Positions 451 through 63,200 of a stretch of 64,000 bases of DNA are shown here, in pieces. A model generated the notes under the pieces. That model was not told the origin of the DNA, ran no database searches, and worked only from the letters and a program-made list of their open reading frames with translations. Every line of letters begins with the position of its first letter. Within the stretch, counting starts at the first letter, position 1. The stretch spans positions 1 through 64,000 of the forward strand of contig MEDY01000138.1 of assembly GCA_001724265.1 (NCBI GenBank), written 5' to 3'. Made by a program: the position numbers and the translations under genes. The DNA is from Rhizaria sp. SCN 62-66 (lineage: Eukaryota).

Positions 451-2874
451 ATGTCTCTCGCTTTCGCGCCCAGCGGCAGCAACGATGTGTTTGTGTCTAC
501 GGCAAGCACTGATGCAGCGAAGCCAACCGTTGTGTTCCTCAAGGAGTCGCACACCGGCACCCCCGTTGACCCCTACGAGCAAGTACGTCATCTCCCTCCC
601 ATATAATCACGCAGTAATTGCCATTAACAATCAATATTGGTGAAAATCCTCTGCCGTGACTAACTAATAGTGTTCGCTAATAATGTATTACACTTTTGGT
701 TGGCTCATTGTGTATCCTTGTTGTTATATCTCTGCTTTCTGGTCCCAGCTGTTTGCCGCCGCGGGCTACAACGTGCGTTTCCTGCCCGTGCTGCGCTTCG
801 ACCACGGCGGCATCTCGCAGGCCCTGAAGCTCACGCACGCGCTTTTTGCGCCCGCAGCGAGCTACAGCGGCGTTGTTTTTACTTCAGCGACCGGGGTCGC
901 CTCGTGCGGCCACGCACTGACGCTGGCGACCGCCTCCACCGCCAACGAGGTCTCATTCCACCACATCGACAACCGCGGCAGCAATGTCAACAGTACGAAT
1001 ACGAGCTGTGGCACTGGGAGCAACGGCGATGCTGCTGCTGCTCACAGCAGGCACACGGCGCACCACAGCTACGGCTGCCCTGTCCTGGCAGCTTTGGCCG
1101 CCGCTGCTGCCTCTGATTCCAGTACGAGCTCTAGCTCTAGTTCTGACTCTGGCTCCGGCTCTGGCTCCGGCTCTGGCTCTGGCTCCGATGCCTCTGGCTC
1201 TAGCTCGCAGTCGCTGTCGCAGCGATTTCTTGGAGCGACCGTGCCATGTTTCACGGTGGGGCCTGCGACCTTCGCCGCTGCCAAGGCCTTCAAGTGGCAG
1301 CTGCCCGCGATGAGCGCCGCCAAATCTAAGGGGCAGCAGCAGCAGCAGCTGCTGCAGTCTAAGAGGGGTCATGATGTCACAACTGCAGACACCAAGGAGT
1401 CTAAGGGCGACGGTGACAACCGCACTTCCGCCACCGACCCCGATTTCGTGTCGTTTTCGGTCGTGAAGGAGCCCCCCGAGGCGAAGCATGACGCTATCGC
1501 CCTTGCCAAGTACTTAGACCTCGTGTGGAAACTAAGTACCCACGCTGGCGGCGGCGAGCTACTGATTCAAGAGCCAGAGCAAGAGAATTCTGTCACTTCA
1601 AAGAGCACCGTCCACGTTACTGCCGTCAATACTGCAAGCAACAACAGCGGCAACAACGACGACCCCAGCGCGGCTAGCCTCACCCTCGACGCCGGCAGCA
1701 ACACCGCCGTAGACAACTCAGCTGACGTTAGCACCGACAACAGCACCAGCGGCGGCCGTCAGCGGTGCGCAGTGCGCAGCATCGTGTTGTCGCCCGCGCC
1801 GTCGCTGGTCTTCGCCATGAGCGAGAGCGAGGGCGGCGGCATGGAGGCCGCGCGCACGCAGGCGCTGCCGCTGTGCCTGTCGCCTCCGCTCGCGGGCTGC
1901 AAGCCCCCCGCAGTCGCGGCCGCGGTTGCGGGCGGCGAAGACAACAAGAATTGTATGAGCACGGGCGCGAGTGCGAGTGAGTTGGAGTCGTTTTCGCTCG
2001 ATAACAGCAACAACACGAGCAAGATCACTATGACGACTGCAAATGCTCGCTCGAAGGGCGCTGGCTCTAGTTCGAACAGTTCGTGTGTGAATGCGGTTGA
2101 TTTCAGTCGGTACACGTATGTTAAGTCGCTTCCTATCGATTATAAGCCGTCACGGCTTGTCTTGGAGGCCGCTGCCACTGCTGGCATCCCTTTCACATCT
2201 CACGCCAACAGCCCCTTAGCCGGCGATCCAAGTACCTCTGCTCACAGTCACTTTGCGAGCGTGCCATTAGTGGACGTCAGGCGGCCGCTGCTGCTGCTGC
2301 TGGCCTCGGCGCGCCTCAAGACGCTGCCAGACGCACTCACGAAGCTCAATATCCCCTTTGTCGTACGTCTCAAGATCTATCGATATTCATGCCGCTTTTT
2401 CGAGACTGTCGTATTCTGTTTGAAAACACAATTTTCCCCCCAAATCGATCTCTGACTCACATTATTTCTCTGTATTATTTCGCATCGATTTCATTGCAAC
2501 CCTGTGCTATGTACCCCGCATTCTCGCCTTGCAGGAGCACTTCGTGTACGACACGGTCCCCAACCTCAACCTCTGGCACGCCCTCACCACCCTACCCCAC
2601 CCTACCACTGACGCCGCCGCCACTGCGAGTACGAGTGCCAGTGACGCAGGGGTGCCCCCTCTGACGTTCTGCTACTTCTCGCCCTCTGGCGTGCGCGCCC
2701 TGGCCGCCCACGTGGCCACGGCTGCGCAGGCGGTTGGCGCAGTCGCCGCCGCGGCCCCCGCCCGGCTCACGCCGCTCAGTATGAGCTCCGGCGTCGGGCT
2801 CGGGCCGCCGGTCGGCGGACACGCCGCCGCTCACGGTCACTTGGCCCACAGTCACTTGGCTCACGGTCACTCTG

Positions 2875-2906
<32 letters not shown>

Positions 2907-3464: not shown

Positions 3465-3870
3465 GACCACAGCACAGTGATACTGACTTGTTTTTGATGT
3501 TAGAGGATAGCGACATTGTTTACGTGTCAAAGAAAGATATTTAGTAATTTATTGGTTTATTTAGTAATTAAAACGCTTTGCATAATACAAAAAATGCGGA
3601 TTTTATCTCTGAAAACGCTACGTTCTCTGTTCTGTGGTTTTTGTGACTCTTCGGTTGGCAGGTTGGCGCCTGGCCATCCGATCGTTCCTTCGTTGGCCCA
3701 AATGAATCTTGATGTAAAATGATGGAACTTCCGTTAATTGCGAATTCCTCTTAAAAGCGAAAGCTAAATTAGCCACTGCACTATATTATCTTATTAAATC
3801 TCATATGGTTTCTATTTTGTTGTGATATAGCCCGACTTAATCTTTCCCGCGCAAAGCGAAAGTTGGAGCC

Positions 3871-5977
3871 ATGTCCTCTCCTCCCCACGGACCCACCAAG
3901 CCCCCAGCCGCTCTGCCCAGCGCAAGCGCTCACCCCACAGCTACATCCGCGAGCGCCGCGCCGTCGGATCTCTCCACACTCCGGATGACTGACGCGGACG
4001 CCTACGCTGCCGCGCTGGACGAGCACGCAAGCAGCGGTGCCGGCGCCGACAGCAGCGCCCGCCGCCGGCGCCGCCCGGCCGCCGCGTCGGCCGCCGCGGC
4101 CAACACGAGTCTCGTCTCGTCTAACTTCGTCAAGAACAACTACAAGCGCTCCATGCGACACGCGCGCAAGTCCGTTTCGGCGCTCGAGAAGGGGCTCGGC
4201 GCCCGGTACCGCAACGGCGTGCTCAAGTCCAGCTTCCGGCAGTCGCGGCGCGAGGCCGCGGCGACGGCGGCAGGGCACGAGAACAACGTGCTGTACCACG
4301 ACCTGCTCGACAGCGACGAGCTGGAGCTGATGCGCATCCACCAGGAGCTGCTCCGCGGCGAAAACAACAGCCGTTACAGTCGCAACTCGAACAATAACAA
4401 CAACAGTGCCGGCCACGGCAGCGCTGCGCGTCGCAATAGCCTGAGCTTGAGCGCGCACGCAGTCGTTGCCAGCGTGCTCGCCAGCGCAGAAGGCACCGCT
4501 TCCGCTGCCACTACTGCTGCCAACGCCGCGGCGACTGCGACGACGGTTGGCCGCGGCGTAACTTGCGGCGGCCTAACTTCAGGCGGCGGCCGGTCGGGCG
4601 CGCGCGCTCACAGCCACTCCCTGTCGTTCGACAGCCTGCACTCGGCGGCGGCCCACGCCGACAGCGCGACGCTGCTGCTCTCGGCGATGACCGGCGCGGG
4701 CGCGACTCTGGCTGTCATGGCCGCGGGCGCCAGCGAGGGCGAGCGTGCCGCCGCCGTGGCCGCCGCGGCCAGGGCGCGGAAGCAGGGGCTCGGGGTGAGC
4801 GAGGAGGTGACTGTGAGCGACCGCGCGCGGCTTAACTTGTTCGAGAGGCGGCTTGAGGAGATGAGCGAGCAGGAGCTCAGGGCGCAGTCTAAGGGGTACT
4901 TAGGCGCGTTTAAGGGCATTGGTTGGGGCAGTGTCAGTAAGCAAAACAGCAGCGGCACCAGCAGCAGCAACAGTAGCACATGCACGGCAAACGCGAACGT
5001 TAGCAATGATGCGACTCGTCCTGCTGCTCGTGCCAGTGCGACCGCGAGTGCGAATGCTATGAGCGACAACGACAATGGGCAGGGCTGTGGCGACGGCAAC
5101 GGCGACGACTGTGACGATGCCAGCGCTGCCGAGGCAGACTTGCGAGAGGACGATGACGATAACGAAGACGATTATGATCAGTATGAGTGCGATGATGGCG
5201 ACGAAGACGATCATGGCGATGAGGACGAGGACGACGAGGAGGGTTACAGCGGTGAGGACGCTGAGCTGGACATTGAGCAAACAGTGAACTCTGCCGACTC
5301 GTCGTCGCATGGAACACAGGGCGGCTTAAATTCTTCTTGCCCCGGCGGCTTGGCTTTGATGACGGAGGCCGAGGCGGCTATGCTCGACGACCTGTCAGGC
5401 CTCAGCGACCTCTCTGGCATCAGTGACTGTGAGCAGGGTGACGAGCAGGATGACTGTGCGCACGGACAGGAGCAAGAGCAGGAGCAAGAGTTCCGCGACT
5501 GTGAGCAGAAGCAGCAGAGCGCAAGTGACCGCGATCAGCAGCAGCGGCTCCAACGCAACGACGCCAGCAGTGACCGTGCTAATGACGGTGGCGACGGCAA
5601 CGGCAACGGCAGCGACGGTGGCTGCAACAGCGACAGCACAAGCGACAGTGACATTGAACTAGTCTTCCTTCCTAGCAGAGCTAGCAATAGTATCGTGGCC
5701 ACGGATGGCAACGCTTTGCTGACTGCCGGTGTGCGTAAGGTGACTGAGAAGTATGAGAAAGTCACAAGTTCCAACATCTTCAGTGTTTATAGTCAAGCCG
5801 CCAACTCGCGCCGCCCCCGCACAGCGGCCAGCGCGGCGGCCGCGAGTGCTGACGATGGCGCGGGTGTCACAAGTACCGCGGCGGCGGCTAAGGGGAAGGC
5901 AGGTAAGGGTACCTACATCGACACGAGTAACCCTTACCTGGACAAGAGCGACGCGTCACACCTCTTTTCACAGCAGT

Positions 5978-6039: not shown

Positions 6040-9000
6040 CAACAACAAGATCCTAACAGTCCCGCTAACAGCAGCTTGCAACCCAAGCCTGCATTTGTGG
6101 CGCCTAGCCCCTTTACTACAGCCACGCCTGCGGCCTCTGCCACCTCTGCAACGCTGCACAAGGCACTCAAGTCAGTCTTCGGCCACTCGACTTTCAACCC
6201 TGGTACGTTGCGAGAACGCAGTTGTTTGGCAATAAGAACATGCTGATTTAGATGCGTTGTAGTATTTCTATTTTTCCGTTTTATTGATATTCTTACACTT
6301 CATCTGGTATCAGCTCACACGTTGTTTACTTCATGCTATTGTTTGTTTCGCACTTTGCATTCACAGGCCAGCAAGAAGCAGTGTCGAATGTCTTACGCGG
6401 CAAATCAACCCTGCTTATCTTGCCGACTGGTGCGGGTAAATCGCTCTGTTACCAGCTGCCGTCGCTGTTTTTGCCCGGCTTAACTTTGGTGATCACGCCT
6501 CTGATCTCGCTGATGTTCGATCAACTGGCCCACTTACCACCCTCACTGCCAGGTACGTACTTACACAACTCCACTTTAACTAGTATTTGACGAGCTAAAA
6601 AAAGCTCAATTTGGCGTTCCACTCACTTATTCGTAATTTAATCATACGAGGCACGTTTCTGACGCACTACTAGCCTCTAAATTCATACTATGCATGTTAT
6701 ATACTCCGTTTTGTGCTATTTCACAGGCGCCGTGTGGTCCTCGGTGGCGACCCCGGCTGAAACGACCGCGCTAATGTCCCGGCTCCGCGCTGGCCTCATC
6801 AAAATCCTCTATCTCTCCCCCGAGCGCCTGCTCTCCCCGGGCTTCCTGCGCTTCGCCTCGCTGTCCCTGCCGGCCCCCGGCGTGTCGCTAGTCTGCGTGG
6901 ACGAGGCGCACTGCCTCTCTGAGTGGTCGCACAACTTCCGCCCAGGTACGCACTTATATCTCACATATCTGCCCAAAACATATCCAATCAGGTATATAAT
7001 ATGTACTCGTTTTGCTACACGGGCCATTCAATTCTTACCACTAGGTGCTCACATATCGCCCATTTACATAACGCTTTGTGTTGTTACGCTGATCTTCTTC
7101 ATAGGCTACTTGCGGCTGACACACCCGATTTTCTCGGTTTTGCGCGCCAAATGCGTGTTGGCGCTGACCGCAACGGCGACCCGGCTCACCGAGGACGTCA
7201 TTTGCCGCACACTGCGCATCGATGTCAAGCCGCCTAGCGACGAGGAGAGTGCTGGTGCGAGCTGCGTGCTGCGCGCTGCGGTGGGGCGGCCTAACTTGCT
7301 GCTCACGGCGAGCCTGGTTGACGGCGACGGCGACGGCAGCGGCAGCGGCAGCGGCAGCAGCTTCGGCGGCCTCCGCGTCAGCGAAATTCTCGCCATCTTG
7401 CAGTCCAAACAAGTCGCCTCCATCACCACGAAAGCCACCACGGACGGCGACGCTAAGACGAAGGCGGCGGCCGCAGCGACCAAATCAACCAAGGGCGGCG
7501 GCGTCAGGGCGAGCGAAGTGCCGAGCAGCATTGTGTACGTCGCGACGCAGTTCCTGGCTGAGCGCGTGGCGACTGAGCTCTCCACCGCGGGGGTCCGCGC
7601 CGAGCCCTACCATGCCGGGCTGACGGCCGCGCAGCGCCAGGCCACGCAGGCGCGCTTCATGGCCGGGAAGGCCCGCGTCGTCGTCGCCACCATCGCGTTC
7701 GGCATGGGGCTGGACAAGTCCGACGTGCGGGTTGTGATCCACCACTCGCTGCCGCGCACACTAGAGAACTACGTGCAAGTACGTCGCATTCTAGGATTTC
7801 TGTAATCGCAATTTGACAAGAAGCTATTTTTTCGCCATGTATCACTGTTGTATTTACGCTTATCAATGATGATTCCCTGATTTATAATGTTCTTATTGAT
7901 ATAATTCTTGCTATCTTGTGTTGCTTCTATTTTCCACGTGCGTCACAACAGGAAATCGGCCGTGCCGGCCGCGACGGTAGGCCCTCGCTGTGCCACGTGC
8001 TCTACTCCTCCGCGGACGCGCACCGCTCCCGGTCACTTGCGCACTCGGACGGCTTCGACCAGGCCACCGTGCTTCGCATTCTCACCGCGCTCTTCCCGCC
8101 GCAAAGCAGCGCGAGCAACACGAGTCGCCATATCGAACGCGACCGCAGTATCGGCGACAGCAGCGGCGACCACGGCGACCACAGTGACGATGGCTCTGCT
8201 GAGGCGGTGCTGTCCCCGTTCCACTTCACGGCTCTGAGCCACGCCGAGTACGAGAACACGCACGACCTCAAGGAGCTGGTGCTAGCGACCATTCTCACGC
8301 AGCTGGAACTTGTGCCCGTGAGTGCCGTCGAGAGCTTTCTCACCGCGTTCGACTGCGTTGTCGACGACGGTACTTACATTCCGGATCTTGCGTCTAAGGG
8401 GGGTGACCGCCGGACTGGTACTGACACGCTGGCTAAGCGCCCCCCGCTCCCGCGCGACTGGTGCCGTCTGTTCCACTTACACCTGATCACGTCCTACCCC
8501 GCGAATGTAAGTACCCCTTACGCGCGGCTAACCTCGTCCTTCCATGACAAGTGCACCCTTACATTCCTTTCGCAAACCCCTGAGGCTGCGGCTCTCAAGA
8601 GTGTCGTCATCAAGGAGGCACTTAAGCAAGCAGGAGTGCATCTAAGTGCCTTTGAGAATGAAGGCAGCAACAGCAATACCACTAACAATGGTCTAAGTAT
8701 CCCGAGTCTCAACACCTTGCCTTTCGCTAATAGTAGCACTCACTCGCACACAAGTGGCGGCACTAACTCGACTGTCGTAACTGTGACAAGTCAGGCCACT
8801 TTCACCGGTACATACACGTCCGCACTCACGGCCCGCAAAAGCAACGGCACCAACGCAGTCGCCGGGGTTGGCGACGATGCTATTGTGACTACTGGCGGCT
8901 ACTTTGGCCCGAAGCAACGCGGCACTTACACCGGCGGCGCTTACAGTCGTGGCGGCGGCCGCGGCGGCTTCCGCGGCCGCGGCGGCTACGGCAAAGGAGG

Positions 9001-10922
9001 CCATAACAGTGGCAGTCACTACCGCTCCAAAGCGGGCTTCAACTCGTACTCTTCGTCGAAACCCGGCAGTTACTACAGCAACAGCGGCGGCGGAGGCGGA
9101 GCACATGGGTCCGGCGGCCGGCGGTTTGGCGCGGCTAACACGCGCGGCAGCGTCACGTGTTCCATCAGTTCCCTCGCGCGCGCGCTGTGCTGGCACGTGT
9201 CGGACGTGCAGCGCGCGCTGATGCAGCTGCGCATGGACGGCGTCATCGGCACCGACTGGAGCGAGATGTCGGCCTGCGTGCACTCGATCGTCTCGCCGGG
9301 CCGCACAGTCACCCTTACAACGGATCTAAGTACCACAGAGTCAGACGCGAACGCAAACACAAGCGCGAACGCGCCGGGCGTGCGGCACGCCAGTGTCCTT
9401 GTGCGCGTGCGCGTGCGCTTGCACGCGGCGCGGGTGCTGTCACGGCTGGCCGAGTATCTGACTTGGCGTATGACGACGCTGGAGCAGGCGGGCGTGCGCA
9501 AGGTCGACATTGTGGAGAAGGCGCTCTCGCTCGTCGCCGTGCCCAGCGCGGGGCTGGCGCTGAAGCAGTTCGAGGGAATGAAGGCCGCGTTTGAAGAGCA
9601 AACTCAGGCCGCCAAGTCTAGCAAGAGCAGCGCGAGTACGAACTCTGGCGCTGTCTTGCAGAGTATTATTGGTGCGTATTTCGATGCGATTGACGATGAA
9701 AGCTTTCGGACTGCTCTACTCTCGATTAAGAACAAGAGCATCATCAAGAACAAAAGCCCTTGTCTCAGTCTCTCTGAAGCCACTAATGATGATGATGATG
9801 TAAGTTGCGCTGCTGTGACGGAGGTAGAGCCTTTGCAAGTGACCGTGAACAGAGTTCTTCGGGCAGCAAACGCGCGCGCAGCTGAGGCCGCCGCGGCCGC
9901 CCTCGCGACGACCCGCAGCCTCCGCCACAGCCTCAGTCTGAACGCTCTCAGTGCCCCCGTCGCCGCGGACGTCGGCGTGAGCGGGTACTACGAAGAGCGG
10001 AAGCCGACTGTGGCGAGTGTTGTGATCCGGATGCCGGACCAGGCTAAGGGGGCACTTACATCCAGCGTTATCGACGACAGCGGTGACAGCAACAATAACT
10101 CAAGCGCTCACACAAAGAGCCGCGAGGCTGTAACCGCAGCTCGTACTAATGCTGCCGGTATCCTGAGTGCTGCGAATGCCGCCGTTGCTGCCGATGCGCT
10201 GAGCTCGCCAGTCATGTCGACGATTGCGCCAACGATTGCGCCGTTTGCGGCTGCCCCCGAGTCCGAGTCGTGGCGCTCGCACCCGACCCTTACACTCGAC
10301 AACGCGACCTACTTAGACCTCACGTCGTCTCTCTTCGCCTTCGTCAAGCAGCACGTGCTGCCCGCGCTCGACAACCACAGGAAGCAGCTCCGGCGGCACG
10401 CCCGGGGGCAAGTCGCATCTGCAACCGCGAGCGGCACGGCGTCGAGCGGCACGGTGTCGAGCGGCACGGCGCCGAGCGGTGTGATAATGACCGCGCGGAC
10501 CGTGGCCCGCGTGTTCCACGGGCTCCCGTCCCCGGCGTTCCCGCTCGAGGCGTGGAGGCGGACCGGCGAGTGGGGGCAGTGGGTGCGCGTGCCGTTCGAG
10601 GCGGTGCTGTGCGCGGCCGAGACGGCTATGGAACGCGCCGGGGCTGGCGAATGGGCGCGAGGCGGACTGACCGTGGGGCGCGGGGGCGGCCTAACTTTGG
10701 GCGCTGAGGGCGGGGCGGCGGGGCTTCCAGTTGCGGGCGAGGCTGGCGACGCCGCTTTGCGCAAGAGTAAGAGTAAGAGCAGGAGTCACGGTACGAAACG
10801 GAGTAAGGCTGGTGATGATGGTGATGCTGCTGTTCCGCCTCAACACAAGTCGAGGTCAAAGTCAAAGAATAAGGGGAAGGAGAAGGGGGCATCCAAGTGG
10901 GAGGACTTAAACTCCTTTGTTG

Positions 10923-10956
<34 letters not shown>

Positions 10957-11365
10957 CGACGATGATAATGACGGTGATGACTGCAATGCCTCAGAGTCCG
11001 ATGGTGCGATTCACAGTGACTCCGATGACGCCGTTCGCCGCAGCCGAGGGACATCTAAGGGTGGTGCAAGTAAGGGCCTCGCGAGCGTCAGTGGCTCGTC
11101 GTCTAAGGGTGTCAAGAAGGCTCGCCTGAGTAACACGACGACAGTTGATGATGCTGCTGTTATCGCCGACAGCGACGATGAGATTGATGTTGACGCTCGC
11201 GCTGTCGACTCTGGGGCCGCGGTCTCCCACGCACCTATTGTTGACGACGACGATTTCACGAGCGGTAACGCGACGACTCGCACACAGCAACAGCAACAGC
11301 CACACAGTGAGGCAGCTGATGTGGACGATGATGACGATGAAGTCTCGCAGTTGTTGGGGTTCTAA
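3871..11365 (+). CDS. RECQL4: RECQL4-like DNA helicase, ~2274 codons; exons 3871-6202, 6367-6552, 6727-6945, 7105-7778, 7952-11365; contains an in-frame TAG at 5977-5979
   Basis: RecQ motifs [74 protein letters not shown]4-type N-terminal NFVKNN and C-terminal [14 protein letters not shown]. Ends in TAA. Confidence 0.88.
5971..6048 (+). repeat. (CAG)n(CAA)n polyglutamine tract interrupted by one TAG
   Basis: Reads CAG CAG TAG (CAG)17 (CAA)6, in frame with the RECQL4 start at 3871. Confidence 0.95.
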
Positions 11366-14129: not shown

Positions 14130-15083
14130 GTTGCTGTTGGTCGGCGGCAGCAGCGACAGGGAAAGCGAGGGACGGGACATTTTGACTCACAAGGGTGTCG
14201 TATACACACGCGGGATGTAGGAAATGCAGTCACAAAGCTGGTGAGATGAGAGGGTCAGAGGTGGCTCTGCACTGAAAGTCACAGAAGGGCTTACAGCAGA
14301 GGCAGGAGCGAAGACTTCAAGGGCTTCAAGGCAAAGCTTAAGCAAAGCTGGGAAACGGCTGGCAGAAGCGCAGTTAGAGCTGAGCTGCAGTGAGTATCCA
14401 CACCAAGCAAGAGCTAGAGCTAGTGCAGCTAGAGCTTGGAGGCTGGAGCTTAGCAGAGGGCAGCCAGTTGCGACCGGGGTGCTTTGAGGGAGAGTAAGGG
14501 AGGCAGCAGCTAGCGCGCTGTTCTAAGCCTATGAGAGAAATGTAGAGCAGTAATACCGTAGAGTAACACGTTGGCAGTACTGTTGTTCTGCGATAGAGCC
14601 TTGTGAAAAAGGCCTGGGGCTCTGGGGGTGGACAAAGAGGAGGCAACAAGGTAGTGCACAAGAGCGGGGAGGAGAGGATGAGCGGGAGGGAAATGCAAGG
14701 GATAGTCGTTAATTGATACACTTCGAAAATAAAGATAAAGAAAAACCTGCGCGGGTAATCCATAAATCGCATTGATTTTGCACTATAACGACGGGAAAGT
14801 CCCTTATGACCGCCCTTAACATCACCGAAACAAGACAGCTCAAAAAACGGTCGGGCTGCTCTGCGGCCCACAGTCACCGGACTGGACTGTAGTCCCAGCC
14901 AACCACCACTAGAACGGAGCAAGCGACGAAGTCCTAAAGTGCGTCCGCCTCACGTTTCACTTGCTTGACGCACTTTAGATCGTCAAAACAACACATGCTC
15001 AGATTATGAGATAGGAACTCACTTAATCTCCTTAATATGCAATTTTTGTTTGTCCAGACTTCGTTCTTGTTTGTCCTCGACCG

Positions 15084-15613: not shown

Positions 15614-15670
<57 letters not shown>

Positions 15671-16775: not shown

Positions 16776-16815
<40 letters not shown>

Positions 16816-24274: not shown

Positions 24275-24684
24275 TCAGTAGCGTCCAAGGACGCGCCACA
24301 CCTCATCCTCGACCTCTCCCAGCGGCACAGTTTTCTCAGTCCTGCCCCGCATGTCCTTGACGACCGCCAACCCGGCCCTGGCTTCGTTCTCCCCGACTAC
24401 CACGGCGACCGGTGCACGGGTTTCCGCGGCGCCCGCGGCGGCCAGCTGCGACCGCCAGGGCCGAGCGGGCGTCATCAACACCCTTAGGCCACCGGCGCCG
24501 CCGCCGCCGCGGGTGAGTACCCCCCTAAACGACGGCGGCGACAGATCCGCATCAGCGTCAGCGTCAGCGTCAGCATCGGCATCAGCCTCGTTGTGGGTAA
24601 GTACCCCCTTAGTCGAGCGGCGGAGGGTCTCTGAGAGGCGCAGCGCCACAGCAACCACGCTCGCACTGTTCACATTACTATTAG

Positions 24685-24722
<38 letters not shown>

Positions 24723-51200: not shown

Positions 51201-54200
51201 GGGCACGACAACTGCAGCGAGCTCTGGCTCAGGCTCAGGCTCGGCCTCAGTCGGTGTCCCCGGCTCGGTGTTCGCTTCGCCGCTCAAGTTGTTATCAGCA
51301 GAGAGGCGGAACGACTCCAAGCTATTGCTGTTGCTGTTGCTGTTGCTGCTAATGTCGGTCTCCTGCTTAGACTGCGCAATTCTCCCTCTCTCTCCATCCC
51401 TGTCCCTGTCCTTGTTGGCGAGCGCCAGCGCGATGAGCGGGCTGCCAGTGGCCAGCGCAAGCATCGTCGGCGTCACGACGGCTGACACGGCGGCGCAGCG
51501 GCACTTGCAGTTATCCGCCGCCCCCGCACTTGCATCGCCGGCGTCCACGTCTAAGGGGGTCGTGCTGAGACCGCTGTCCGCATTGACGGCGGCGCTGACG
51601 GGGGGCTTGGGACGCGGGTGGGCCGCGGCGACGAGCGTGCGCAGCGCCTCCCGCAGCTGCTTGATCTGCGCGTCCTTCAGCATCAGCACCGCGTTGTTCG
51701 GTGGCGGCGCTGCGTGTGCATGCGGGTGCAAGTGCGCGTTCCCGTGGTACGGCGAGCCAGAGCCAGAGCCGGCGCTGGCGCTGTGTTGGGTGAGCGCTGC
51801 CAGCGAGGGGGAGCGCGGCACTGCGCCGGAGATGCGCAGACTCGCGCTGGCGCTGCCAGCCGTACTCGCACTCGCTCCAGCAGTGTTGGTGGCGCTTACG
51901 CTGTGGCCGGGGCTTGAGGTCGCAGCAAGCGCGTTGCTGCCCGCGCTGCTGCTGCTGCTGCGCGCTGCTTTCGTGGCGGCGGCGAGACGCGTTGTGAGGT
52001 CGTCGATACGGCTCTTGTGGATGACGGCGTCACGGTTCTAAATGATATGAAACAAACATATATGCAGCATACAGCACAAATTAGCCAAAATTAGAGTGCA
52101 ATATAACTGTCTTTTACACATCGTTTTACTTGAAAGCACACACACATCACTCGTTATTGACAAGTGTGCCACATTTCACTAAATTCACTCGATGTCACTT
52201 TGTTCTACAGTCATCACAGTTCACGTACCCTGTCAATTTGCAGCTGCGCAAGCTTACTCTCCGCAGCCTCCCTCTCCCTGATCGCGTCCTTGGTCGCCTG
52301 CTGCTCCTTCTTCAGCAGCGCCGCCGCCGCCGCCCCCGCTACGCCCGCAGCGCCCGCGCCACCGGAAGCACTGTTTGTTTTCTTGTCAGCGAGCTGCTGT
52401 GCGCGCCAGAGCTCGCGCTTGAGCTCGTCCGTCTCCTTGGCCTTAGCCGCCGCAGTGACGGAGGCCTCTTTGAGCTTAGCCGCGGCGTCCGCGCGGGCTT
52501 TTTCGACCTGCTCGGCCTTGTCGGCGACCTAGAAAATGTCGTGAAACACGAATCAAAGAAAAGGTGGGATTAGGCCAAAAGTGATATGAATATGATAAAA
52601 TACTGTGAGTAAGATGTAATGGAGCATTGAATTATAAGAACAATACAAGGTTGACAGAAAGCAACTTGTTGTTATCTTAGAGACATATGTAGCCCCGCGT
52701 ACCTGTGCTTCGAGCGCCTTGATGGTCTTGAGCGCGGCCCTCTGCGCCGCCGCATGCTTCGCGCTGGCCTCCTCCAGCAGCAGCTTAAAGCGCAGCGCGG
52801 CGCCGGCGTCAGCGTTGGCGGTGGCCGCCGCGGGGAGACGGACCGTGCGGACGCGGCGCGCAAACAGCAGCGTTGAATGGGACTCGAACTGGTGCACCGC
52901 GCTCGGGGACAGAGTGACAATGAGCGCAGTCTTGCTGTTGCCGCCCAGCGAGTCCTGCAGCAGGTACGTCAGCTTGCTGTTGCGATACGGCACGTGCTGG
53001 CCCTGCTGCTGCTGCTCAGAGTTAGCGGCTGCGTTCGCAGTAGAGCCAGTCGTCACAGCGTTCGAGTTGGTATTCGCATTGTTATTGTTGCTGTTGTTAT
53101 TATTGGAGGCGGTGGCGAGTGCTTGGAAGACGTCCGACAACGCCGCAAGCGATTTTCCGATGTGCGCCGCCTCAACAAGCCTGATGCCCTGCGCACCGGT
53201 CTTGGCCACGCGCTCCGAGCCCGCCAGGTCGACCAGCGTGAGCTTGCCGAAGGTGCGCGCGCGCGTCGCCCGGTTGTGGCCCACCAGCGACAGCTGCAGG
53301 ATCACGTGCGAGCGCGTTGAGTGCTCGTTCATGCCCGTCGCGCCCACCGCCCTGTTGTTGACGCCGCGGTCGATCACGGCCAGCGCGTGCGCCGCGGTCG
53401 GACACAGCGCGCGCGTGGAGCCGGCGACGAACATACCGTGGCGACCGCGCCGCACGCGCAGGTCCGTCGACTCGGCGGCGGCGGCGGCCGCGGCCGCGGC
53501 GGCCGCGGCAGTCGCTGTCGCGGAGGTCAGCGTCATATTCTGGAGTAGCAGAGCAAATATGCAAGTTTTCGAGACATAAAATAGTGTTTTTAAAATATAA
53601 ATCAATGTTATTAGTGACATATTTGAGTTTAGGCTGGCGTCAGCAGTGCATAGTTCATCAAATATCCTTGTTATACAAATATCAATTTAGACTTGCAAGT
53701 CAGGTCACAATGCTCTTGACCACTTCATCTTGGAAGGACGTACGCTGAGAGTGCGCGCCGGGAACGGCGACCCCATGCCGCCGCCAGTCGCCGCCGCAGC
53801 GGAGCTGACTGCGCGGTTCAGCGCGGGGGACCCCACCGTGCCGGCAGTGTTGGCGTTGCCGCTGCCGCCGGCGCCGGCACCGGTGCTAGGATGGCGTCGG
53901 GGCTTGAGGCCGGAAGTCGCAGGCGAACCCAGTTGCTGCTGCGACTGCTGCTCTTTGTTCGCACCAGCAGCAGTGCTGTTTCCGGTCGCGCTCGCGTTCG
54001 CCGCGTCAATGACCGCGCTAGAGCTGCTGGCGCTAGCGTTGTTGTTGTTGCTGTTGCTGCTGCTGCTGCTGCTGTCGGCGTTAAGATTGAGGTCGAGGAA
54101 CAGATCGTCGTCGTCGGTGCCCTCAGCGCTCCACCGAGTGAAGCGAGCCTGCGTCAACAGCTGCGTTTGAGTCAGCCCATCAACAACAACGCCGCCAGCG

Positions 54201-57200
54201 ACGTTAGAATTCGCGTCGGGTTGACTCGGGGCGGTGGCAACAAGCGTCATGTTGGCGTTACCAGTGTTGGCGGCCACGTTGTTGGCGCTAGCGTGGGACG
54301 GCAGGCGGGAGAACACCGCCGCTTCGGCCGCGACGGGCGCGAGCAAGTCGCGGATCGTCTCGTTGTAGATCTCCAGCAGCGACACGTGCAGCTTATACTC
54401 GAATCCTTCGTCGTCGCTGCCGCTGGCGACACCGCTGTTCGCGTTACCATCGCCATTCTCATCAATGGACGCAGCTGCGAGAGCGTTGGCGAAGTTGTTG
54501 CTATTGCTGCTACCGCGGGCGAGTGCGGCGGCGACCATTGCGTGCACGGCCCTGGGGGCGACGCCGGGATCCCCGCCGCTGCCGAACATCGTGTGGGTCT
54601 TGCCGGATCCGGTCTGTCCGTACGAGAACACGCACGCGTTGAATCCCTCCAGCACCTCAGTCACCAGGTCCCCGACCTGCGCGTACACGTCCGCCTGCGA
54701 GTCCAGAGGCGTGAGCACGCGATCCAGCGAGAAGAGCGAGTAGCTGGCAGGGTCGCGAATGTGGCTCGGCAGCGCCGCTAATGCAGCCGTCGCATTCTCG
54801 CCCGCACCGACAAGCGCGTCCGTGTTGTCGCCGCCGTCGGCAAGGGCGAGGGCGCTGTCGCCGTCAGGTGCAGGGACCGTGAGCGCGGGGGTCGCGACTC
54901 CGTCAGCGCTGTTGGAGTTTGAGTCGGCCCCACCCGCAGCACCGCTAGCAGTAGCGGCCGCAGCGGTAGCGTTGGTGGATGGCGCGACAGCGCCGGGTTT
55001 CAACACCGCGACTTGCTTGATATTGACGAACTCAACCGTGGTCAAGCCGCCCGCAAATGCAGTTGCAATCTCGAGCTGGCCCTTAGACGGCAGGGGAGCA
55101 CTTACATTAGCGAAGTTGAAGCCAGCAGCGTTCGCCGCGCGCGGCGTACTTACACTCAGCGCGCGGGGAGTCCCACTCGTACTTACTCCCTGCTGCTGCT
55201 GCTGCTGCTGCTGCTGTTGTTGTTGTTGCAGTAAATACATCTGCTGCTGTTGCTGCTGCTGTTTGAGCGACAGTAGCCGCGCCTTGACCGCGGCCTGCTG
55301 CGCCAGCGGCCGCGGCGCCTGCTTCTGCTCCGCGGTGGACAGCGGCCGGACACGGGCCAGCACCCGGATGCTGCCAAACGTGCCGGCAAAACCGCCGTTG
55401 TTGCCGCCGATGAGGCCGGCGACGAAGCTGTTAGGGTTGAACGCAGCGGAGGCGTTGCTGGTATGATCGGGCATAAAGGGGAGCGACGCCGTGCGGTTGT
55501 AGCTCACCATAGGCATACTGGTACTGTTGCTGTTGTTGCTGCTGTTGCTGTAGAACTGCGCCGAGGAGGGCGTGAGGGGCGGCGATACAGGGAGCACGAT
55601 CGGCGCGCATCTGTTGCTGTTGGCGCCGCTGTTGACAGCAAACGCAGGCGTGTTGAGGTTGATCGTGGTCTCACCGTCGGCCGGAGCAACGCTGCTGCTT
55701 GCAATCGCGCTCGCGTTCGCGCTTGCCTTCGCCGCCTCAGCCTCCGCCTTGGCCTCAGCCGCCGCCTTGACCTCAGCCTCCGCCTTGGCCTCGGCCGCAG
55801 CCGCGGCCGCAGTGGCAGCGGCGGCCTCCGCCCTGGCCTTCTCCAGCTCCTTCTTGAGCGCTCCCTCCGCCGCCGCGCTGGCGCTGATCGCTGCCGCCAC
55901 CGCCGCCGCGACGGCCGCTGCGCGCTTCTTGTCCCCCTCGTCGTTCGCAGCTGCCACGGCGGCGGCCACGGCGGCGGCGGTCTTGCTGTCGGCGTCGGCG
56001 GCAGCGGCGGCCGCGGTGGCATCGGCCTCGGCGCGCATGCCTTGGAGCGCCACGGCGTTGGTCTCAGCGATCGACGCGCGCTGCACCGACTGTGCGCACG
56101 CGGCCTGACTTTCGACGAGCGCGGCCTCGAGCTCAGCGATACGAGCATTAGCAGTGACACTGTCAGTGTTAGTTTCGTTGTCGTTGTCAGTGTCGGTCTT
56201 AGTCTCGGTTGCAGTCACGGTGTTGTTGCTACTGTTCTTTGCATTTGCTTCTGCTTCAGACTTTGCAGCAGCAACAGCAGCAGCTATGGCAGTTTCCCTC
56301 TCTGCCTTAGCTTCAGCCTGAGCCTGAGCCCTCGCTTCAGCGACAGCCTTCGCAGTCGCGGCCTCCGCCTCCGCCGCAGTCACGCTGGTCTCGGGTGTCG
56401 CGCTTGCAGTTGCAGCTGTCGCGGCAGCGGCAGCGGCAGCGGCGGCGGTGGCGGCGGCGTGTCGAGACGCCTCGGCCTCGAACGCGGCCGCGTCCCTCTC
56501 GGCCACGAGCGCCTCGCACTGCGCCTGCAGGCTGTCGCGGGTACCCGTGAGGAGCTCGCGCTCCGCCGCAGCCAGGTCGCGCTCTGCCACGGCCGCGTCG
56601 AGCTCGGTGCGAGTGGCCTCCGCGAGCGCAGTCGCCGCGGCAAGCTGTGCGCTTGCGTCGTGCAGATGTGCGCTCGTGTCCCGCAGTTTCTCACTGGCTG
56701 CAGAGAGCTGGGCGGAGTAGTCGTCGCGCTCGGCCTCGGAGATCTCGAGTCTTTCCTCCAGATCCTTGGCTTTGGCTTCAGACGCCTTGGCCTGCGAGGC
56801 AAGCTCCGCAGTCTTGGCTTCCAGATCCTTCGTTTTAGCTTCGAGCTCGGCTGATGTGGCACGCAGAGCCGCGAGCTCGGCGTTGGCAGCCTCTGCGGCA
56901 GCCTGCGCCTCCGCAAGCGCCTTCTTGAGCTGCTCACAGTCACTCTCAGACGGCGCACTTGCAGGTGCAGTCACCGTCGCCGTCGCGTCGCTGTCAGTGC
57001 TAGTTGACTGTCGCGCAGCGAGCTGTAGCTGCACGGTGGCCAACTGCGCGGCCGCAATCTCCGCCTTGGCCTCGGCCTCCTCTTTCTCAGCTTTCGCGAC
57101 CTCGAGTCTCTCTACGGCGTTCTCGGCCACATCGTGCGCCTCGTCTCGCTCCCGCTCCGCCGCCGCCAGGGACGCGGCTGCGCGCTGCCGCTCGCGGGCC

Positions 57201-57577
57201 TCGCGGTCCGCCGCGTCCTCGGCCGCGCTCAGCCGCGCGCGCAGCGCAGCCAGGGCCTCGCTGTTGGCCGCAGCCGCAGTCGCGGTCGCAGTGGCAGCGG
57301 CGAGTTGAGACTCGTGTTCGGCGAGTGTGATGAAGCCTTCGCCAGGAGAGCCAGCGGTAGTACTGTTAGAGCTATTGTCGGTAGAGCTCGCGTTGGATAG
57401 AGCTTGAGCACGCGCATCGGCGAGCTGTGCTGTGAGCGTGGAGACTTCGCTTTCCAGCTCGTCCTCAATGGTTTTGCTGCTTTCCTCAAGCTCTTTGAAC
57501 TCTCTCTCGAGCACGCGGTAGCGGGCCTCCCAGTCGCCGCTCTCCGCAGTGGGCGCGAGCGGGGACGGGGAGCTCAT
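48222..57577 (-). CDS. Kinesin-14-like motor protein, ~2928 aa, with N-terminal coiled coil, internal motor and long C-terminal tail; exons 57577-53744, 53539-52703, 52528-52229, 52037-48222
   Basis: Neck GSIRVLARVRP, P-loop YGQTGSGKTHTM, LEIYNETIRDLL, switch I NEHSTRSH, switch II LVDLAGSER, HVPYRNSKLTYLLQDSLGGNSKT. Ends in TGA. Confidence 0.88.
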
Positions 57578-58278
57578 GATGGAGACGGTTCAGGCTAGGA
57601 ATGGGGGGGATTTGGGCTCTTGTTGCTGAAGGCTAAGCTGAAGTACAGTGGGATCCGTTGGCGAACCGGGGGGTTGGAAACACAAGAGAGGATTTAGTGA
57701 GCTATATAACGAAATTTAAGACTAAAATTCAATATTACTGAGTACATACAGACGCAATATTCCTAAAATTGCACATTTAATGCTAAATGAAGCTGGAATT
57801 GATGATGTCGGCGGGGCGAAATGAACAGTGACAAAGCGTTAAGATCAATGACACGCGCCCGTCGCGCCGATAGCCTGCGCAAGGGGTATGTAGTAAAATC
57901 TCAAAGAGAAATTAAGTTATAATATAAATCACACACTTGTTTGTTCAGCTCACAAACTTGTATCTCTCTTGACGATCAATGGGCAGTGCTAGATTGCGAG
58001 AAAGTTGCATCGGCAATGGCTTCGTCCAATAACGGTGGTGACTGCGGTCCTAGTCCACATCCCAAGCAGGCCCACCAAGTCATCGATGTACTGACATGAT
58101 TTGATCGTCAACTAACACCAAACTTAGTTCATAGCAGATCAGTACCGCGATCTCACCGAATTTCTTTTTATACCCTACCTCGCGCGTTTTGTGTCTCTCT
58201 ACACAGCTTTCCCGTCCCAAAGTTCCTCTGTTCAGTAAGAGCCGTTGAGACTATCCCCCGCCGTCCGCCCGCGCCGAA

Positions 58279-59109
58279 ATGGACGCGCCCCCGTCCCCCG
58301 CCCTGTCTGCCGCGACAGCGTAGCCGGCGAACCACAGCGCTTAGTGGGACCGCATGTACGCGCAGGCTTCGGCCTCCGAGGCCGCCGCAGCCGAGGCCAA
58401 GGCTGCCAGGGACTCCCACAACTCCCGCGACTCCCGCGATGCACGCGACTCGAGGGACTCCCGCGACTCGCAGCGGCGTTCGGTTGACTCGTCTTCTCAC
58501 GGTTCCAGCTCTAGCTCCCGCTCCGGGTCTAGTAGCTCCAGCTCTGGCTCCTACCGGTCAGGCTCTGACGGTCGCTCATCGTCATCATCGTCGTCATCGT
58601 CATCATCTTCATCGTCATCATCGTCGTCAAACCGTGACCGTGGTCATGACCGTGACCGTGACCGTGACCGTGAGCGTGGTTATGAGCGCAGCAGTCGTGA
58701 GCGTGACCGCAGCAACCGTGACTTTGACCGGGATCGCGACCGGGATCGCACTGAGCGAACTGACCGCACTGACCGTGACCGTGAGCGCGACCGTGAACGT
58801 GACCGCACCAGTGAACGTGGGTACCGGAGTGACCGTGAACGCAGCGACCGTGACCGTAACCGTGACCATGACCGCGACCGCGAGCGTGACCGTGACCGTG
58901 ACCGCGGCCGAGACTACTCCTCTCGGAGTGACCGTGACCGTGATCGCAACCATGACGGTGACCGTGACCGTGACCGGAGTTACCGTGAGAGCGAACGTAA
59001 TGACCGTGGTCGTGATCGTGAACGTAATGACCGTGACCGTGACCGTGACCGCGATCGCAATCGTGACCGTGACCGCAGTGACCGTGCTGATCGTTCCGCT
59101 CCTGAGCAA

Positions 59110-60051: not shown

Positions 60052-60254
60052 GAAACAAGTCATGCGAAGACACATGTACCATTACATATAACGAGTCTTT
60101 TAGATAAAAATAAAAAACAATTTATTTTAATTTCAATTAATTGTTCTTTATTATAAACTTAAATCACAGAAAGTCGCACACTATATAAAGATATCCATTC
60201 ATTTCAAGTTTACTCATCACAAGCCAAAAAAGTCTTCACAGACAGCAGTTACTC

Positions 60255-63200
60255 TTATTGCTGCTCTTGCTGTTGCTGGTGGTGGTGGTCCTCGTCGTTA
60301 ATGCCCATGTGGTCGTCGAAGTCGTCCTGGAACTGCAGCGGGTCCAGCGACGCGCCGGGCGGCCGCACCGCGCCCAGCGCCGCAGTCTCGGCCGCGACTT
60401 GCAGCGCGCCGGGGGGCGCGCCCGCGGCGCCCTCTTGCGAAAGGAACAGCAGGTGGTGCTGCTGGGACGGGAGTAGTGACAGCGCCGGCTGCGGCTGCGG
60501 CGACTGCAGGGACTGAACCGGCGGCTGAACCTGCGACTGCGACTGCGTGTGTTGCTTGGGGAGCGACGCAGTCCCCGTTGCGAGACTGCTGCGGTCGTTA
60601 GAAGCCGCCGTTGATGCAGTCACGATGGCACCGACACTCTTGCGACCGCCTGCATTCCCAGCACTCTTTCTGTGCTCGTTGTGCGCAACGTCGTCAGAGG
60701 CCTCGTTGATCGCGTCGATGTTGGCGTCGATCTCTTGAGTGAGCGGGAACATGTCTTGACTGAGCATGTACGTCTGCTGCGGGAGCTCAAGGGTCGCAGG
60801 CGCGGTACTGTTTGCATTGGCGTTGGTTTTGGTATCATTAGAGCTGCTGCTCGTGGCCGAAGGAACATCAACAGTCGCGTTGTCACTAGACTTGCTGGCA
60901 TTAACGTTGCCGCTAGTGCTACTCGAACTAGAGCTCGAGCTCGAGCTCGAGCTGGAGCTTGAGCTACTACTGCTGCTACTGTTGCTGTACTTGGTCGACA
61001 CTGGCGGCTTGGCCGCCGACACAGACCGCACGGCCATCAGCTGCACGTGCTGCGGCTGGCCCGCCACGCCAGCGCCGCCGCTACCACGTGGGGCGCCGCC
61101 ACCGTTACTCCTGTTCGTCGCCGCAGCAGCTGTCGATCCAGATCCAGCGGCAGTCCCGTTCTGCGTCTGAGTCTGCGTGTGAGCTTGCCCGCCTTGCGCA
61201 GTATACGCAGTCAGACTGAGCCCGAAGCCCAGCCCCGGCCCTAGCGCCGCCCCCGGCAACACCGCTGGTCCAGCCGAGCCAGCGCCAGCGCCAGCGCCAG
61301 CGCCAGCGCCAGTGCCAGTGCCACTGCCCAAAGCGCCACTGATGGCGCCGTCGTGCGCGGCTGCCGCGGACAGCAGCGGGGTCGGAGCCAGCAGCCCGCT
61401 GTTGGCGCCACCGCCGGCGCGGCCACTGCCCAGCGCAGCCATAGCGCTGCTGCTGCTGTTGCTGCTGCTGTTGCTGGGAGCGCTGGCAAAGACGTTTGCG
61501 CCGCCGGTGTAGCTCCGCGCCGGCGCGCTCCCACCGAGCGCCGTGGTGACGCTACTTAGATTGGATGTAAGGGACATCCCGAGCGAGGGCGTCGGCGCGG
61601 GCGCGAGCGCGGGCGTTTGAACCCGTGAGCCAGCAGCAGCCGCGGCCACTGCTGCTGTTGAGGCTGCTGAGGCGAAGAAGGCTGAGGCCGCTGATGGCGT
61701 CACAGAAGAGGGCGCCGCGGGTCCCAGCGAGCCACGGACACCGCCCAACAAGTGGCTGTGGCTGTGGCCGACCGAGAGGTGGCTGTGCGCACCGTGACCG
61801 TGGCCGTGGCCGTGCGCGAGAGCGTGGCCGTTGCTGTAGATCGCGGTGAGGCTGGGGGCGCGCGACGGGGGGCTGATCACAGTACTGCTGCTGGCGCCGA
61901 CACTGGTGACTGCGTTGTTACTGCTATTAGTACTGCTGCTGTTGTGGGAGGCTGTGGGCAAGGTGTCGACGCGGCTGAGCCTACTTACATTGCTGCCGGT
62001 GCTACTTACACTGACGCCGCTCGCGTTCGAGTGCGTGGCGCTCACCACGCCCGTCATGGACGCCACCGACAGCACGCCCGAGCCGGCGCCGCTCGAGCCG
62101 AGAGTCATACTGTTGGCAGTGGTCAGAGTCCCGCCGTTGCCACAGTTGCCGCCGTTGCCATTACCGTTGGCGCTGCTGTTGGCAGCGAGGCTGGGGCCGA
62201 GACCGGAGGACGACCGGACGAGTCCGCTGGCACCAAGACCGTCGGGGACACCTAGCCCCGCGGCACTTAGTCCCGCGGAACTTAGACCGGCGGGGGTACT
62301 TAGTCCCGACGCAGGGCGCTGCACGCCGAGCCCGACGGCATTCGTGTTGATGCTGAGGTTGGTGCCGTTTGCGGCCGTGCGCGGGCGCTTGACGGAGTAA
62401 TCGAACCCGCCGGCTGTCGTCATCACGCTGCCGTTCATTGCGACCGGCCCGATGTTGCCCCCGCTGCCGCTGCCACTGCCGCCGTAGCTGTTGACCCCGT
62501 TGCCGTGGCCGTGGCCGCTGCTGCTCTCGGCGAGACGCTTGAGATGCTGCGACTGTAGGTAGCCCTGGCTGCTCTGCATCGCCGGCGGCGTTGTCATCGT
62601 GCTAAGCTTGCTTGCATACGCACCGCCGCCGCTGTTCGCGTTGGCGCTCGCGCCGCCGACGACGAGCGCGGCAGCGGCCATGTTCGCGAGCACAGAACCG
62701 CCGTTCGCACCAGCACCACCGCCGCCGCCGGTGCCGGTGGCAGTGTTCGAGGGTGGGGGCGAATGGGAGAGTCCCAGTGAAGCCCCCGCGAGGTTGGCGC
62801 CCGCGCCGCCACTGTAGAGGCTCGAGAGCGGGTGTTTGGGCTGCATGCGGCCGCCCGCAGCAGCCATGCCAGCGCCGGCGGCGAACTGCCCCGACTGCTG
62901 CTGCTGCTGCTGATGATGCTGCTGGTACTGCTGGTTGCGCGCGGCGCGGTCGTAGAGACTGTGGCTGCCGGCTCCCGCCGCCGCGACTGCGCCGCGCCTG
63001 TAGCCGGCGTGCACCTTGCCGAGCCCCACGGCAACAGCAGCAGTGCCAGCGTTGCCAACAGGACCGGTCGCGCTCGCGCCGGCGTCGGGGCTGAGCATCG
63101 CGGCCACAGCGGCGGCGGCCACGCCGTGCGGGTGGGGGCCGCCAGCTGTGGAGCCACCGCCGCGCCTGTGGGCGCCGTAGCCGTTGTAGCCACCTGTGAG

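Follow-up and report, generated by a model that had tools for sequence, protein, structure and literature searches.

What kind of sequence can recur, almost letter for letter, inside the coding frames of many unrelated genes? The question is raised by a 64-kb stretch of DNA from Rhizaria sp. SCN 62-66 (assembly GCA_001724265.1, contig MEDY01000138.1, positions 1 to 64,000 of the forward strand; here called the window), where a short word is dispersed through long open reading frames (ORFs). In its full form, this element reads (G)T-S-TAAG-TACCCC-CTTA-S-A(C), S being C or G, and is a 16- to 20-bp imperfect palindrome with an asymmetric 6-nucleotide (nt) centre. Five copies of CTAAGTACCCCCTTAG are identical at 16 of 16 nt (18054 and 18915 on the plus strand; 19348, 28178, and 29730 on the minus strand). 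A preliminary description of this DNA had listed ten full or near-full copies and three dense zones (17760-19590, 28060-29980, and 31030-32860); by direct inspection, each of the ten coordinates holds the sequence given for it, and the zones are real. All counts below refer to this one window.

The excess of the word over expectation is large. At three mismatches or fewer, the 16-mer gave 16 matches at 15 places compared with 0.13 expected, a value that none of 100 shuffles reached. Under an order-2 Markov model, TAAGTAC was found 40 times (2.35 expected), CCCTTAG 29 times (2.75 expected), and TAAGTACCCC 17 times (0.02 expected). The preliminary description had called for a comparison with shuffles that preserve both codons and amino acids. 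We therefore permuted synonymous codons within each of 24 ORFs, so that all proteins and the codon usage were preserved, and the excess persisted: TAAGTAC was observed 39 times against 3.8 +/- 1.8, TAAGTACCCC 17 times against 0.56, and compact STAAG-N5-6-CTTAS pairs 12 times against 0.17, with none of 300 shuffles reaching any of these values. Shuffling the order of the codons had the same outcome (0 of 300). An independent study (X3) yielded a DNA contig that covers 17575-19155, including three copies, with zero differences, and the repeat is therefore not an assembly artefact. The degenerate 16-mer, which occurs seven times in the window, was matched, each time singly, at 62 loci across 596 Gb of prokaryote genomes and at 18 in IMG/VR; a count of half-sites around the 18 viral loci (L056 to L073) showed no enrichment. 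The observation is confirmed and statistically robust.

Next, we asked at which level the word is conserved. It is a DNA-level word and not a protein motif. Thirty-nine of the 40 TAAGTAC sites lie in long ORFs and one lies outside. In the sense orientation, 20 are read as xTA-AGT-AC, which gives [LV]ST, and 7 as AAG-TAC, which gives KY; the 12 antisense sites are spread over three frames (VL, YL, and GTY). Five frame and orientation classes are used, that is, every stop-free frame in both orientations, and the frames that would yield TAA or TAG are necessarily unused because these are stops. This site-by-site count bears out the preliminary description, which had reported several frames in both orientations and had held that copies confined to one frame would indicate a peptide motif. 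The predicted translations by frame and orientation are LSTPL/VSTP, SKYPL, KGVL, YL, and GTY. Codon usage likewise agrees with its claim that the element forces uncommon codons: in the ORFs, CTA and TTA make up 5.3% and 4.5% of Leu codons, GTA 7.4% of Val codons, and AGT 16% of Ser codons. STAAGTAC nevertheless encodes 20 of the 35 [LV]ST tripeptides in the ORFs, and 12 of the 13 [LV]STP tetrapeptides are encoded by STAAG(T/C)AC, the 12th being GTAAGCACC, which departs from the word by one synonymous base. In antisense copies, Lys/Arg-Gly is written with the rare codons AGG and GGG. Given the rare-codon encoding of 20 of 35 [LV]ST, the peptides are consequences of the DNA word. That it is the DNA and not the peptide that is conserved, again as first described, follows from the use of the word in several frames and from its removal by the peptide-preserving shuffle.

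The word is also very unevenly distributed. ORFs make up 76% of the window and hold 84 of the 87 strict sites (p 4e-7); the AT-rich introns and spacers are nearly empty, with the remaining 3. Site density is highest in two adjacent orphan ORFs on the minus strand, 27556-30258 (5.5 per kb) and 30370-33366 (5.3 per kb), followed by a RecQ-like ORF (3.4 per kb) and the RNase D-like ORF (2.7 per kb). Strict sites are absent from the genes for cystathionine gamma-lyase (CTH), NIPA, and PPR proteins; the kinesin-motor ORF 52556-53686 is likewise free of them, whereas the other one, 53708-57589, has three. Of the sites in ORFs, 75 belong to the first 33.4 kb and 9 to 33.9-64 kb, although total ORF length is similar (p 1e-12); the density is about 7-fold higher in the first half even though long disordered ORFs occur in both. 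Within genes, the sites are clustered: 42 neighbour gaps measure 11 to 45 nt, compared with 12.9 +/- 3.1 under random placement (0 of 2,000 reach this value). Tandem duplication of 15 to 21 nt (32114-32157 and 62263-62303) accounts for some of the clustering, and inverted neighbours (17832/17845 and 19356/19369) for some more of it.

Within genes that have recognizable domains, the copies sit in added residues. The DEDD exonuclease domain of the RNase D-like protein is split, at 18285-20280, by a low-complexity insert of about 590 residues relative to Escherichia coli RNase D; residues 47 to 118 of the E. coli protein correspond to 665 residues here, and the insert carries the copies at 18750-19585. 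Similarly, the anticodon-binding domain of the histidyl-tRNA synthetase (HisRS) has an insert of about 100 residues, which carries the copy at 24597. The preliminary description had noted a concentration in low-complexity insertions with no full copy in CTH or NIPA, and these inserts and the counts of strict sites show the same. Orientation is biased toward sense: A-arm sites together with B-only sites number 49 sense and 25 antisense, and the A arm alone lies in ORFs 27 times in sense and 12 times in antisense (p 0.024). When the sites were mapped on the predicted secondary structure of P0002, the protein of one of the two orphan ORFs, six of eight clusters fell in loops, a result that we do not count as evidence; an AlphaFold2 single-sequence model of P0002 had a mean predicted local distance difference test score of 39, too poor for use.

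Given that the full form is palindromic, we examined whether the arms or their pairing is the conserved part. The half-site logo is R-G-T-[C/G]-TAAGTAC-C-C-C, sharp over about 11 positions (n = 40); the base preceding TAAG is C in 19 sites and G in 21, never A or T, and position -2 is T in 29 of the 40. The lone second arm, C-CCTTA-[C/G]-A-C, occurs at 51 sites and is the 7-mer GTSTAAG inverted. Among 197 STAAG sites, the next bases are TAC in 40 and GGG in 22, each of which corresponds to one side of the full element. Single half-sites (GTSTAAGTACC and CCCTTASAC) are more numerous than full copies. Where STAAG is followed by CTTAS within 60 nt (36 pairs), the most frequent spacer is 6 nt (10 pairs); two pairs have 5 nt, and spacers of 11 to 27 nt also occur; the arms of the commonest form are unequal beyond 5 nt. 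Because half-sites outnumber pairs, secondary structure is not the conserved thing.

The measured properties of the hairpin point the same way. The core, a 5-bp stem with a 6-nt loop, has about -2.5 kcal/mol as RNA and -1.3 as DNA without help from the flanks. In some copies the flanks appear to lengthen the stem, but they contribute no more pairing than chance would: the mean was -6.5 kcal/mol for the real copies and -7.3 for chimeras in which the left flank of one copy was joined to the right flank of another (permutation p 0.85). The outer S bases are complementary in 8 of the 12 compact copies, with 7.5 expected from base frequencies, and in 21 independent pairs (spacer of 30 nt or less) 11 are complementary and 10 are not. 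The covariation of stems asserted in the preliminary description is thus not seen, and its view of the hairpin as a selected feature is not supported, given a weak stem, noncomplementary flanks, and a majority of half-sites; the hairpin is more plausibly a by-product of inverted copying than a functional unit. Around 17 copies, there is no direct repeat of the kind left by a target site duplication (TSD). When 108 sites were compared in pairs, the shared stretch never exceeded 24 nt, even if one mismatch per side was permitted, so that the longer parent element for which the preliminary description had proposed a search is absent from the window. Rfam returned no family at gathering score, and the output of an inverted-repeat finder was dominated by GC-rich low complexity.

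The individual copies show how these forms are spread along the window. A 15-nt full variant with four C's, CTAAGTACCCCTTAG, lies at 4889-4903 (minus strand), antisense to ORF 3841-5976, and a second 15-nt variant, GTAAGTACCCCTTAC, at 8507-8521 (plus strand), is read in sense as NVSTPY in ORF 7817-11362. A near-full copy with two mismatches, GTAAGTGCCCCCTTAG, is at 10044-10059 (minus strand), and six half-sites in both orientations (CTAAGTAGC, CTAAGTAC, CTACTTAG, GTACTTAC, CTAAGTACC, and GTAAGTGG) are clustered at 17760-17911. In the RNase D-like ORF, the exact copies at 18054-18069 and 18915-18930 (plus strand) are both read in sense as LSTPL, the second of them within the insert that splits the exonuclease domain. 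They are followed by a degraded copy, CTAAGTACCCCATCAA, at 19059-19074 (plus strand, LSTPSS), and by the exact copy at 19348-19363 (minus strand), which is antisense (KGVL) and has the half-site GTAAGTAC 6 nt further on. The HisRS copy, GTAAGTACCCCCTTAG, at 24597-24612 (plus strand), is antisense to the exon (KGVL).

In ORF 27556-30258, a perfect palindrome variant, CTAAGGGCGCCCTTAG, at 28157-28172, is followed by the exact copy at 28178-28193 (minus strand, sense, SKYPL). Next come GTAAGCACCCCCTTAG at 28443-28458 (minus strand, sense, VSTPLD), where AGT has become the commoner AGC, and CTAAGTACCCCCTCAC at 28481-28496 (minus strand, sense, SKYPLT). A cluster of four direct and inverted half-sites occupies 28813-28901; a degraded copy, GTAAGTGCCCCCTCAG, is at 29385-29400 (minus strand), and the exact copy at 29730-29745 (minus strand) is read in sense as LSTPLD. 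ORF 30370-33366 contains a second GTAAGTACCCCCTTAG at 31730-31745 (plus strand, antisense, KGVL), a degraded copy, GCAAGTAGCCCCTTAG, at 31890-31905 (minus strand), and, at 32114-32157 (minus strand), three 15-nt tandem units with one half-site each (VSTPG/VTTPG/VSTVR), a local duplication. Further along, the B half-site CCCTTAGAC at 51551-51574 (minus strand) comes after CTC AGC ACG ACC, so that the peptide is GLSTTPLD with the A arm in common codons. Another perfect palindrome variant is at 59969, and three degenerate half-sites (CTAAGTACC, CTAAGTTCC, and CTAAGTGCC) stand in tandem at 62263-62303 (minus strand).

A unit of 20 bp or less is thus found at about 45 separate places, in both orientations and in many unrelated genes, only where the protein tolerates it. 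The account that we favor, tentatively, is an interspersed DNA-level micro-repeat family that was copied at the nucleic-acid level in repair or recombination and then filtered by selection, the copying being the part that we infer. The word would be copied during DNA repair or recombination as a short templated insertion or by micro gene conversion. In end joining mediated by polymerase theta, templated insertions copy nearby sequence either directly or as the reverse complement. Such re-copying of nearby sequence, direct and inverted, would give rise to the compact inverted pair (the "hairpin") and to tight local clusters. Micro gene conversion could move the word between genes, most efficiently between neighbours, and such a preference for neighbours would agree with the excess of sites over the first 33 kb. 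Selection would then discard copies that shift the frame, bear stops, or disturb the fold, with [LV]STP, the mildest peptide, surviving best, and this filter would account for both the frame spectrum and the 2:1 sense bias. The common codons in the A arm at 51551 and the change of AGT to AGC at 28443 suggest slow erosion by synonymous change. A more far-reaching version, which we regard as doubtful, is that of a self-amplifying palindromic nuclear micro-element of 16 to 20 bp, smaller than any known mobile element, that would spread selectively into transcribed coding DNA by copying linked to repair or conversion, be translated there, and so expand proteins.

Several observations weigh against an origin by copying. 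Presence/absence polymorphism was not seen; the X3 and X4 DNA contigs are identical to the window wherever they cover copies, and nothing shows mobility. Neutral copying followed by filtering predicts at least as many copies in noncoding DNA, but the non-ORF part, 24% of the window, holds only 3 of 87 sites; this depletion calls for an extra assumption, which could be targeting of GC-rich or transcribed DNA, faster decay in AT-rich DNA, or a function in exons. The sense bias (49:25) and the 20:7 preference among sense frames fit a role at the RNA or protein level equally well. Because 16 nt, the length of the core, is not divisible by three, the inserted unit has to measure 15, 18, or 21 nt. 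Two long disordered ORFs, 48225-52037 and 60258-63998, have just 0.26 and 0.53 sites per kb, and the basis of all of this is limited to 64 kb.

Because introns and spacers are nearly free of the word, we retain as a substantial rival a functional exonic cis-element maintained by selection rather than by copying. It could be a putative protein-binding site on DNA or RNA, with a 10- to 11-nt single-strand-type GUSUAAGUACC or a dimeric CTAAG-N6-CTTAG as candidates, or a rare-codon pause signal, and we consider it possible, although not the likeliest explanation. The location of 84 of 87 sites in ORFs, the sense bias of the A arm, the sharpness of the half-site logo, and the identity of five copies over all 16 nt are what such an element would look like; rare codons make up every frame of the word, and its regional enrichment could mark a chromosomal domain. 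However, one third of the copies are antisense, most genes in the window lack the element, long ORFs included, and many copies are degraded in a way that alters DNA and peptide alike. There is also no structural conservation or Rfam match, and the tight clusters from 15- to 21-nt tandem duplication look mutational. Footprints of DNA transposon excision, composed of the terminal bases of both inverted repeats, or a micro-MITE (miniature inverted-repeat transposable element) would explain conserved inverted ends around an interior that varies from 5 to 27 nt, the perfect palindromes at 28157 and 59969, and the use of both orientations. This explanation is improbable: TSDs are lacking, no longer element with such ends and no transposase-like ORF was noticed in the window, the arms of the commonest form do not match beyond 5 nt, solitary half-sites dominate, and footprints would be expected at least equally in the noncoding DNA that holds 3 of 87 sites.

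Two other rivals were considered. We judge it quite improbable that the word reflects a short linear peptide motif, [LV]STP(L)(D), for example a site of proline-directed phosphorylation or docking, whose DNA identity stems from recent duplication. Half of the 40 A-arm sites are indeed in the single frame that gives [LV]ST(P), some flanks are alike at the peptide level (GLSTPLVDVD, ALSTPLDAGADVD, VSTPLDVS, and GLSTTPLDVD), and the 51551 copy retains the peptide with common codons. Yet the other 20 sites are antisense or in other frames, selection on the peptide would use preferred codons where 12 of 13 [LV]STP use STAAG(T/C)AC, and a shuffle that preserves every peptide removes the word (39 versus 3.8). 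As a sole cause, the peptide motif is largely refuted. Least probable of all, to the point of being very unlikely, is an intronic nature, whether as very small spliceosomal introns or exitrons (GTAAGTAC...CCCTTAG) or as remnants of introns that were deleted imprecisely. It is true that GTAAGTAC could pass for a strong 5' splice site and CCCCTTAG for a pyrimidine tract with its AG, and that three copies reach 18 nt when the GT before them is counted; but 19 of 40 half-sites start with CTAAG, 12 of 39 in ORFs are antisense, and the 16-nt units sit in uninterrupted ORFs of 900 to 2,100 codons. The three real introns visible in the window are AT-rich, are 150 to 215 nt long, and begin with GTACGC, GTACGT, and GTATGT. 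RNA-library contigs run colinear and gapless across 29385-29400, 32114-32157, and 28813-28901, although such bridging contigs could have DNA or pre-mRNA as their source and may miss rare spliced forms. Among the matches listed, the five exact copies are each without a bridging RNA contig, and record 17 of run X6, which spans 24597-24612 with three gaps of unlocated position, is uninformative. On this weak evidence, the copies are probably not spliced. They lie in frame within uninterrupted ORFs and are kept in the bridging RNA contigs, and their protein product is predicted. For each of transposon footprint, peptide motif, and mini-intron, one or more direct tests gave a contrary result. Three further candidates were rejected: a telomere-like repeat, since copies of the word do not join into a tandem array; a relict spliced leader, since the copies are internal and in both orientations; and a TTA/TAA duplication of the PIF/Harbinger type, since the arms are inverted and not direct.

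Short words in coding sequence are best known from bacteria. HIP1 (GCGATCGC; highly iterated palindrome 1) is a perfect 8-bp palindrome of cyanobacteria, hugely over-represented in coding DNA, in several frames, and in noncoding DNA; it has no transposase, TSD, or parent, and its origin has been ascribed to repair, methylation, or conversion bias. The word described here resembles it as a short over-represented word in coding sequence, read in several frames, with no transposase, TSD, or parent seen in the window. Unlike HIP1, it is an imperfect palindrome of 16 to 20 bp whose half-sites are commoner than pairs and often solitary, and it is nearly confined to exons and regionally clustered in a eukaryotic nucleus. 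The uptake signal sequences and DNA uptake sequences (USS/DUS) of Haemophilus and Neisseria are 9 to 12 nt long and occur about once per kb, in both orientations and often as inverted pairs, mostly in less conserved parts of proteins; their frame bias is explained by tolerated peptides, and they are driven by biased DNA uptake in naturally competent bacteria. A short word in both orientations, inverted pairs, less conserved protein parts, and a frame bias are all shared with the element here, but we know of no biased-uptake process in this eukaryote. Rickettsia palindromic elements (RPE) are bacterial units of 100 to 150 bp with a stable secondary structure, which insert in frame into ORFs, are translated at tolerant positions, and look selfish. 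Our element, too, is a palindromic repeat in frame within ORFs that adds residues at tolerant positions, but its unit is 20 nt or less and its 5-bp stem is marginal in place of a stable hairpin of 100 to 150 bp. With MITEs and transposon footprints it shares dispersed inverted ends in both orientations, the inverted arms measuring 5 to 7 nt; it differs in its size of 20 bp or less, in having no TSD and no longer element in the window, and in being almost lacking from noncoding DNA.

In appearance, then, the word seems closest to HIP1, uptake sequences, and RPE, and by our analysis it is a member of none of the systems compared. The interpretation in the preliminary description, which had pointed to such bacterial words, stands in its view of a DNA-level element that lies in poorly conserved, lineage-specific coding stretches, adds residues, and has the look of those words; its treatment of the hairpin as selected is not supported, and the self-propagation, chromatin signal, and repair footprint that it proposed are candidate readings. 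Each of the bacterial coding words has revealed a molecular drive, be it uptake bias, methylation or repair bias, or mobility. Were the present word spread by copying, it would be a new way for proteins to acquire residues and would mark a bias in repair or recombination; should it instead be a site under selection, it would be an unusually long exonic cis-element for a putative binding factor; and if the self-amplifying reading is true, it would be a nuclear, exon-borne counterpart of HIP1, USS, and RPE.

The closest eukaryotic likeness is to the coding-sequence repeats of Eimeria. In this alveolate, CAG and telomere-like coding repeats are translated in several frames, and chromosomal segments are either repeat rich or repeat poor (PMC4199364). 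Both are eukaryotic DNA-level repeats that favor coding sequence, use several frames, and are distributed by segment, but those of Eimeria are tandem trinucleotides and heptamers, in contrast to a 16-mer interspersed as single copies with inverted arms (PMC4199364). The mitochondrial genes of Nematomorpha contain perfect, locus-specific coding palindromes of up to 284 bp (PMC6649704); these are likewise inverted repeats embedded in coding sequence and translated, although long, locus specific, and mitochondrial where ours is one short dispersed nuclear word (PMC6649704). In open-access text, supplements not included, we found no published description of an interspersed, nontandem exonic word in a eukaryotic nuclear genome; in-frame palindromic elements were described there in organellar and bacterial cases only, and the 10-mer was found only in unrelated primers.

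Searches for relatives of the proteins and of the locus returned little. A word-index search gave zero relatives of P0001 (residues 1000 to 2122) and of P0002 (residues 140 to 760), and an exhaustive HMMER search gave 0 proteins for P0002, for which an atlas look-up returned just weak ARM/HEAT-like leads below 0.9. P0002 and P0003 are the proteins of the adjacent orphan ORFs 27556-30258 and 30370-33366, each of 900 to 1,000 codons and together the richest in the motif of all ORFs; P0003 had no Pfam match, and no homology search was made with it. Among 55 metagenome loci found by a contig search anchored on CTH, only L001 and L052 are related, and neither gave an orthologous locus for a copy. 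L001 has 84% nucleotide identity over 1.6 kb without flanks, and L052, from the same organism, stops at window position 24478, short of the 24597 copy; the remaining loci are about 50% identical and apparently bacterial.

The window itself has a G+C content of 61% (59 to 72% in exons) and contains nuclear-type eukaryotic genes for CTH, a NIPA transporter, PPR proteins, a kinesin, an NSUN-type methyltransferase, HisRS, and an RNase D-like exonuclease. The RNase D-like ORF (15036-21401, 2,122 codons) includes an HRDC domain and is mostly filler rich in Ala, Ser, Asn, and Gln. CTH lies at 22230-23399 and HisRS, which is of bacterial type and probably organellar, at 24278-27079 in two ORF pieces; both are on the minus strand, as is the kinesin gene (52556-57589), whose motor domain is divided over two ORFs and whose N-terminal part is very long and of low complexity. 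Near the 5' end of CTH, a 214-nt AT-rich GT..AG intron (23218-23431, minus strand) has the 5' site GTACGC and is spliced out in a cDNA-type contig of run X6. The 3' ends read, in two of the three introns, are CAG, and one long intron that was read through has CTAAC-like branch sites. The genetic code looks standard; a ciliate code was rejected, because CTH stops at TAA where its Pfam profile ends. DNA of the window is present in bioreactor and wastewater metagenome runs from several studies, and the closest named relatives of its CTH are only 73% (a dinoflagellate transcriptome) and 65% (Colponema) identical; another relative has a CTH of 86% identity. From the two named matches, the uncultured microbial eukaryote is possibly an alveolate.

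Other repeats are present as well. At 58630-59080, inside an ORF that ends in an FHA domain, lies an imperfect tandem array of about 50 copies of a hexamer (GTGACC/TGACCG); among the over-represented words of the window it ranks second, and it has no relation to the exonic 16-mer. Across the whole window, trinucleotide runs of CAG/GCA, CAA/AAC, GCC/GCG, and GAC are strongly over-represented and are read as poly-Q/S/A, poly-N/Q/T, poly-A, and poly-D, like the coding simple repeats of Eimeria.

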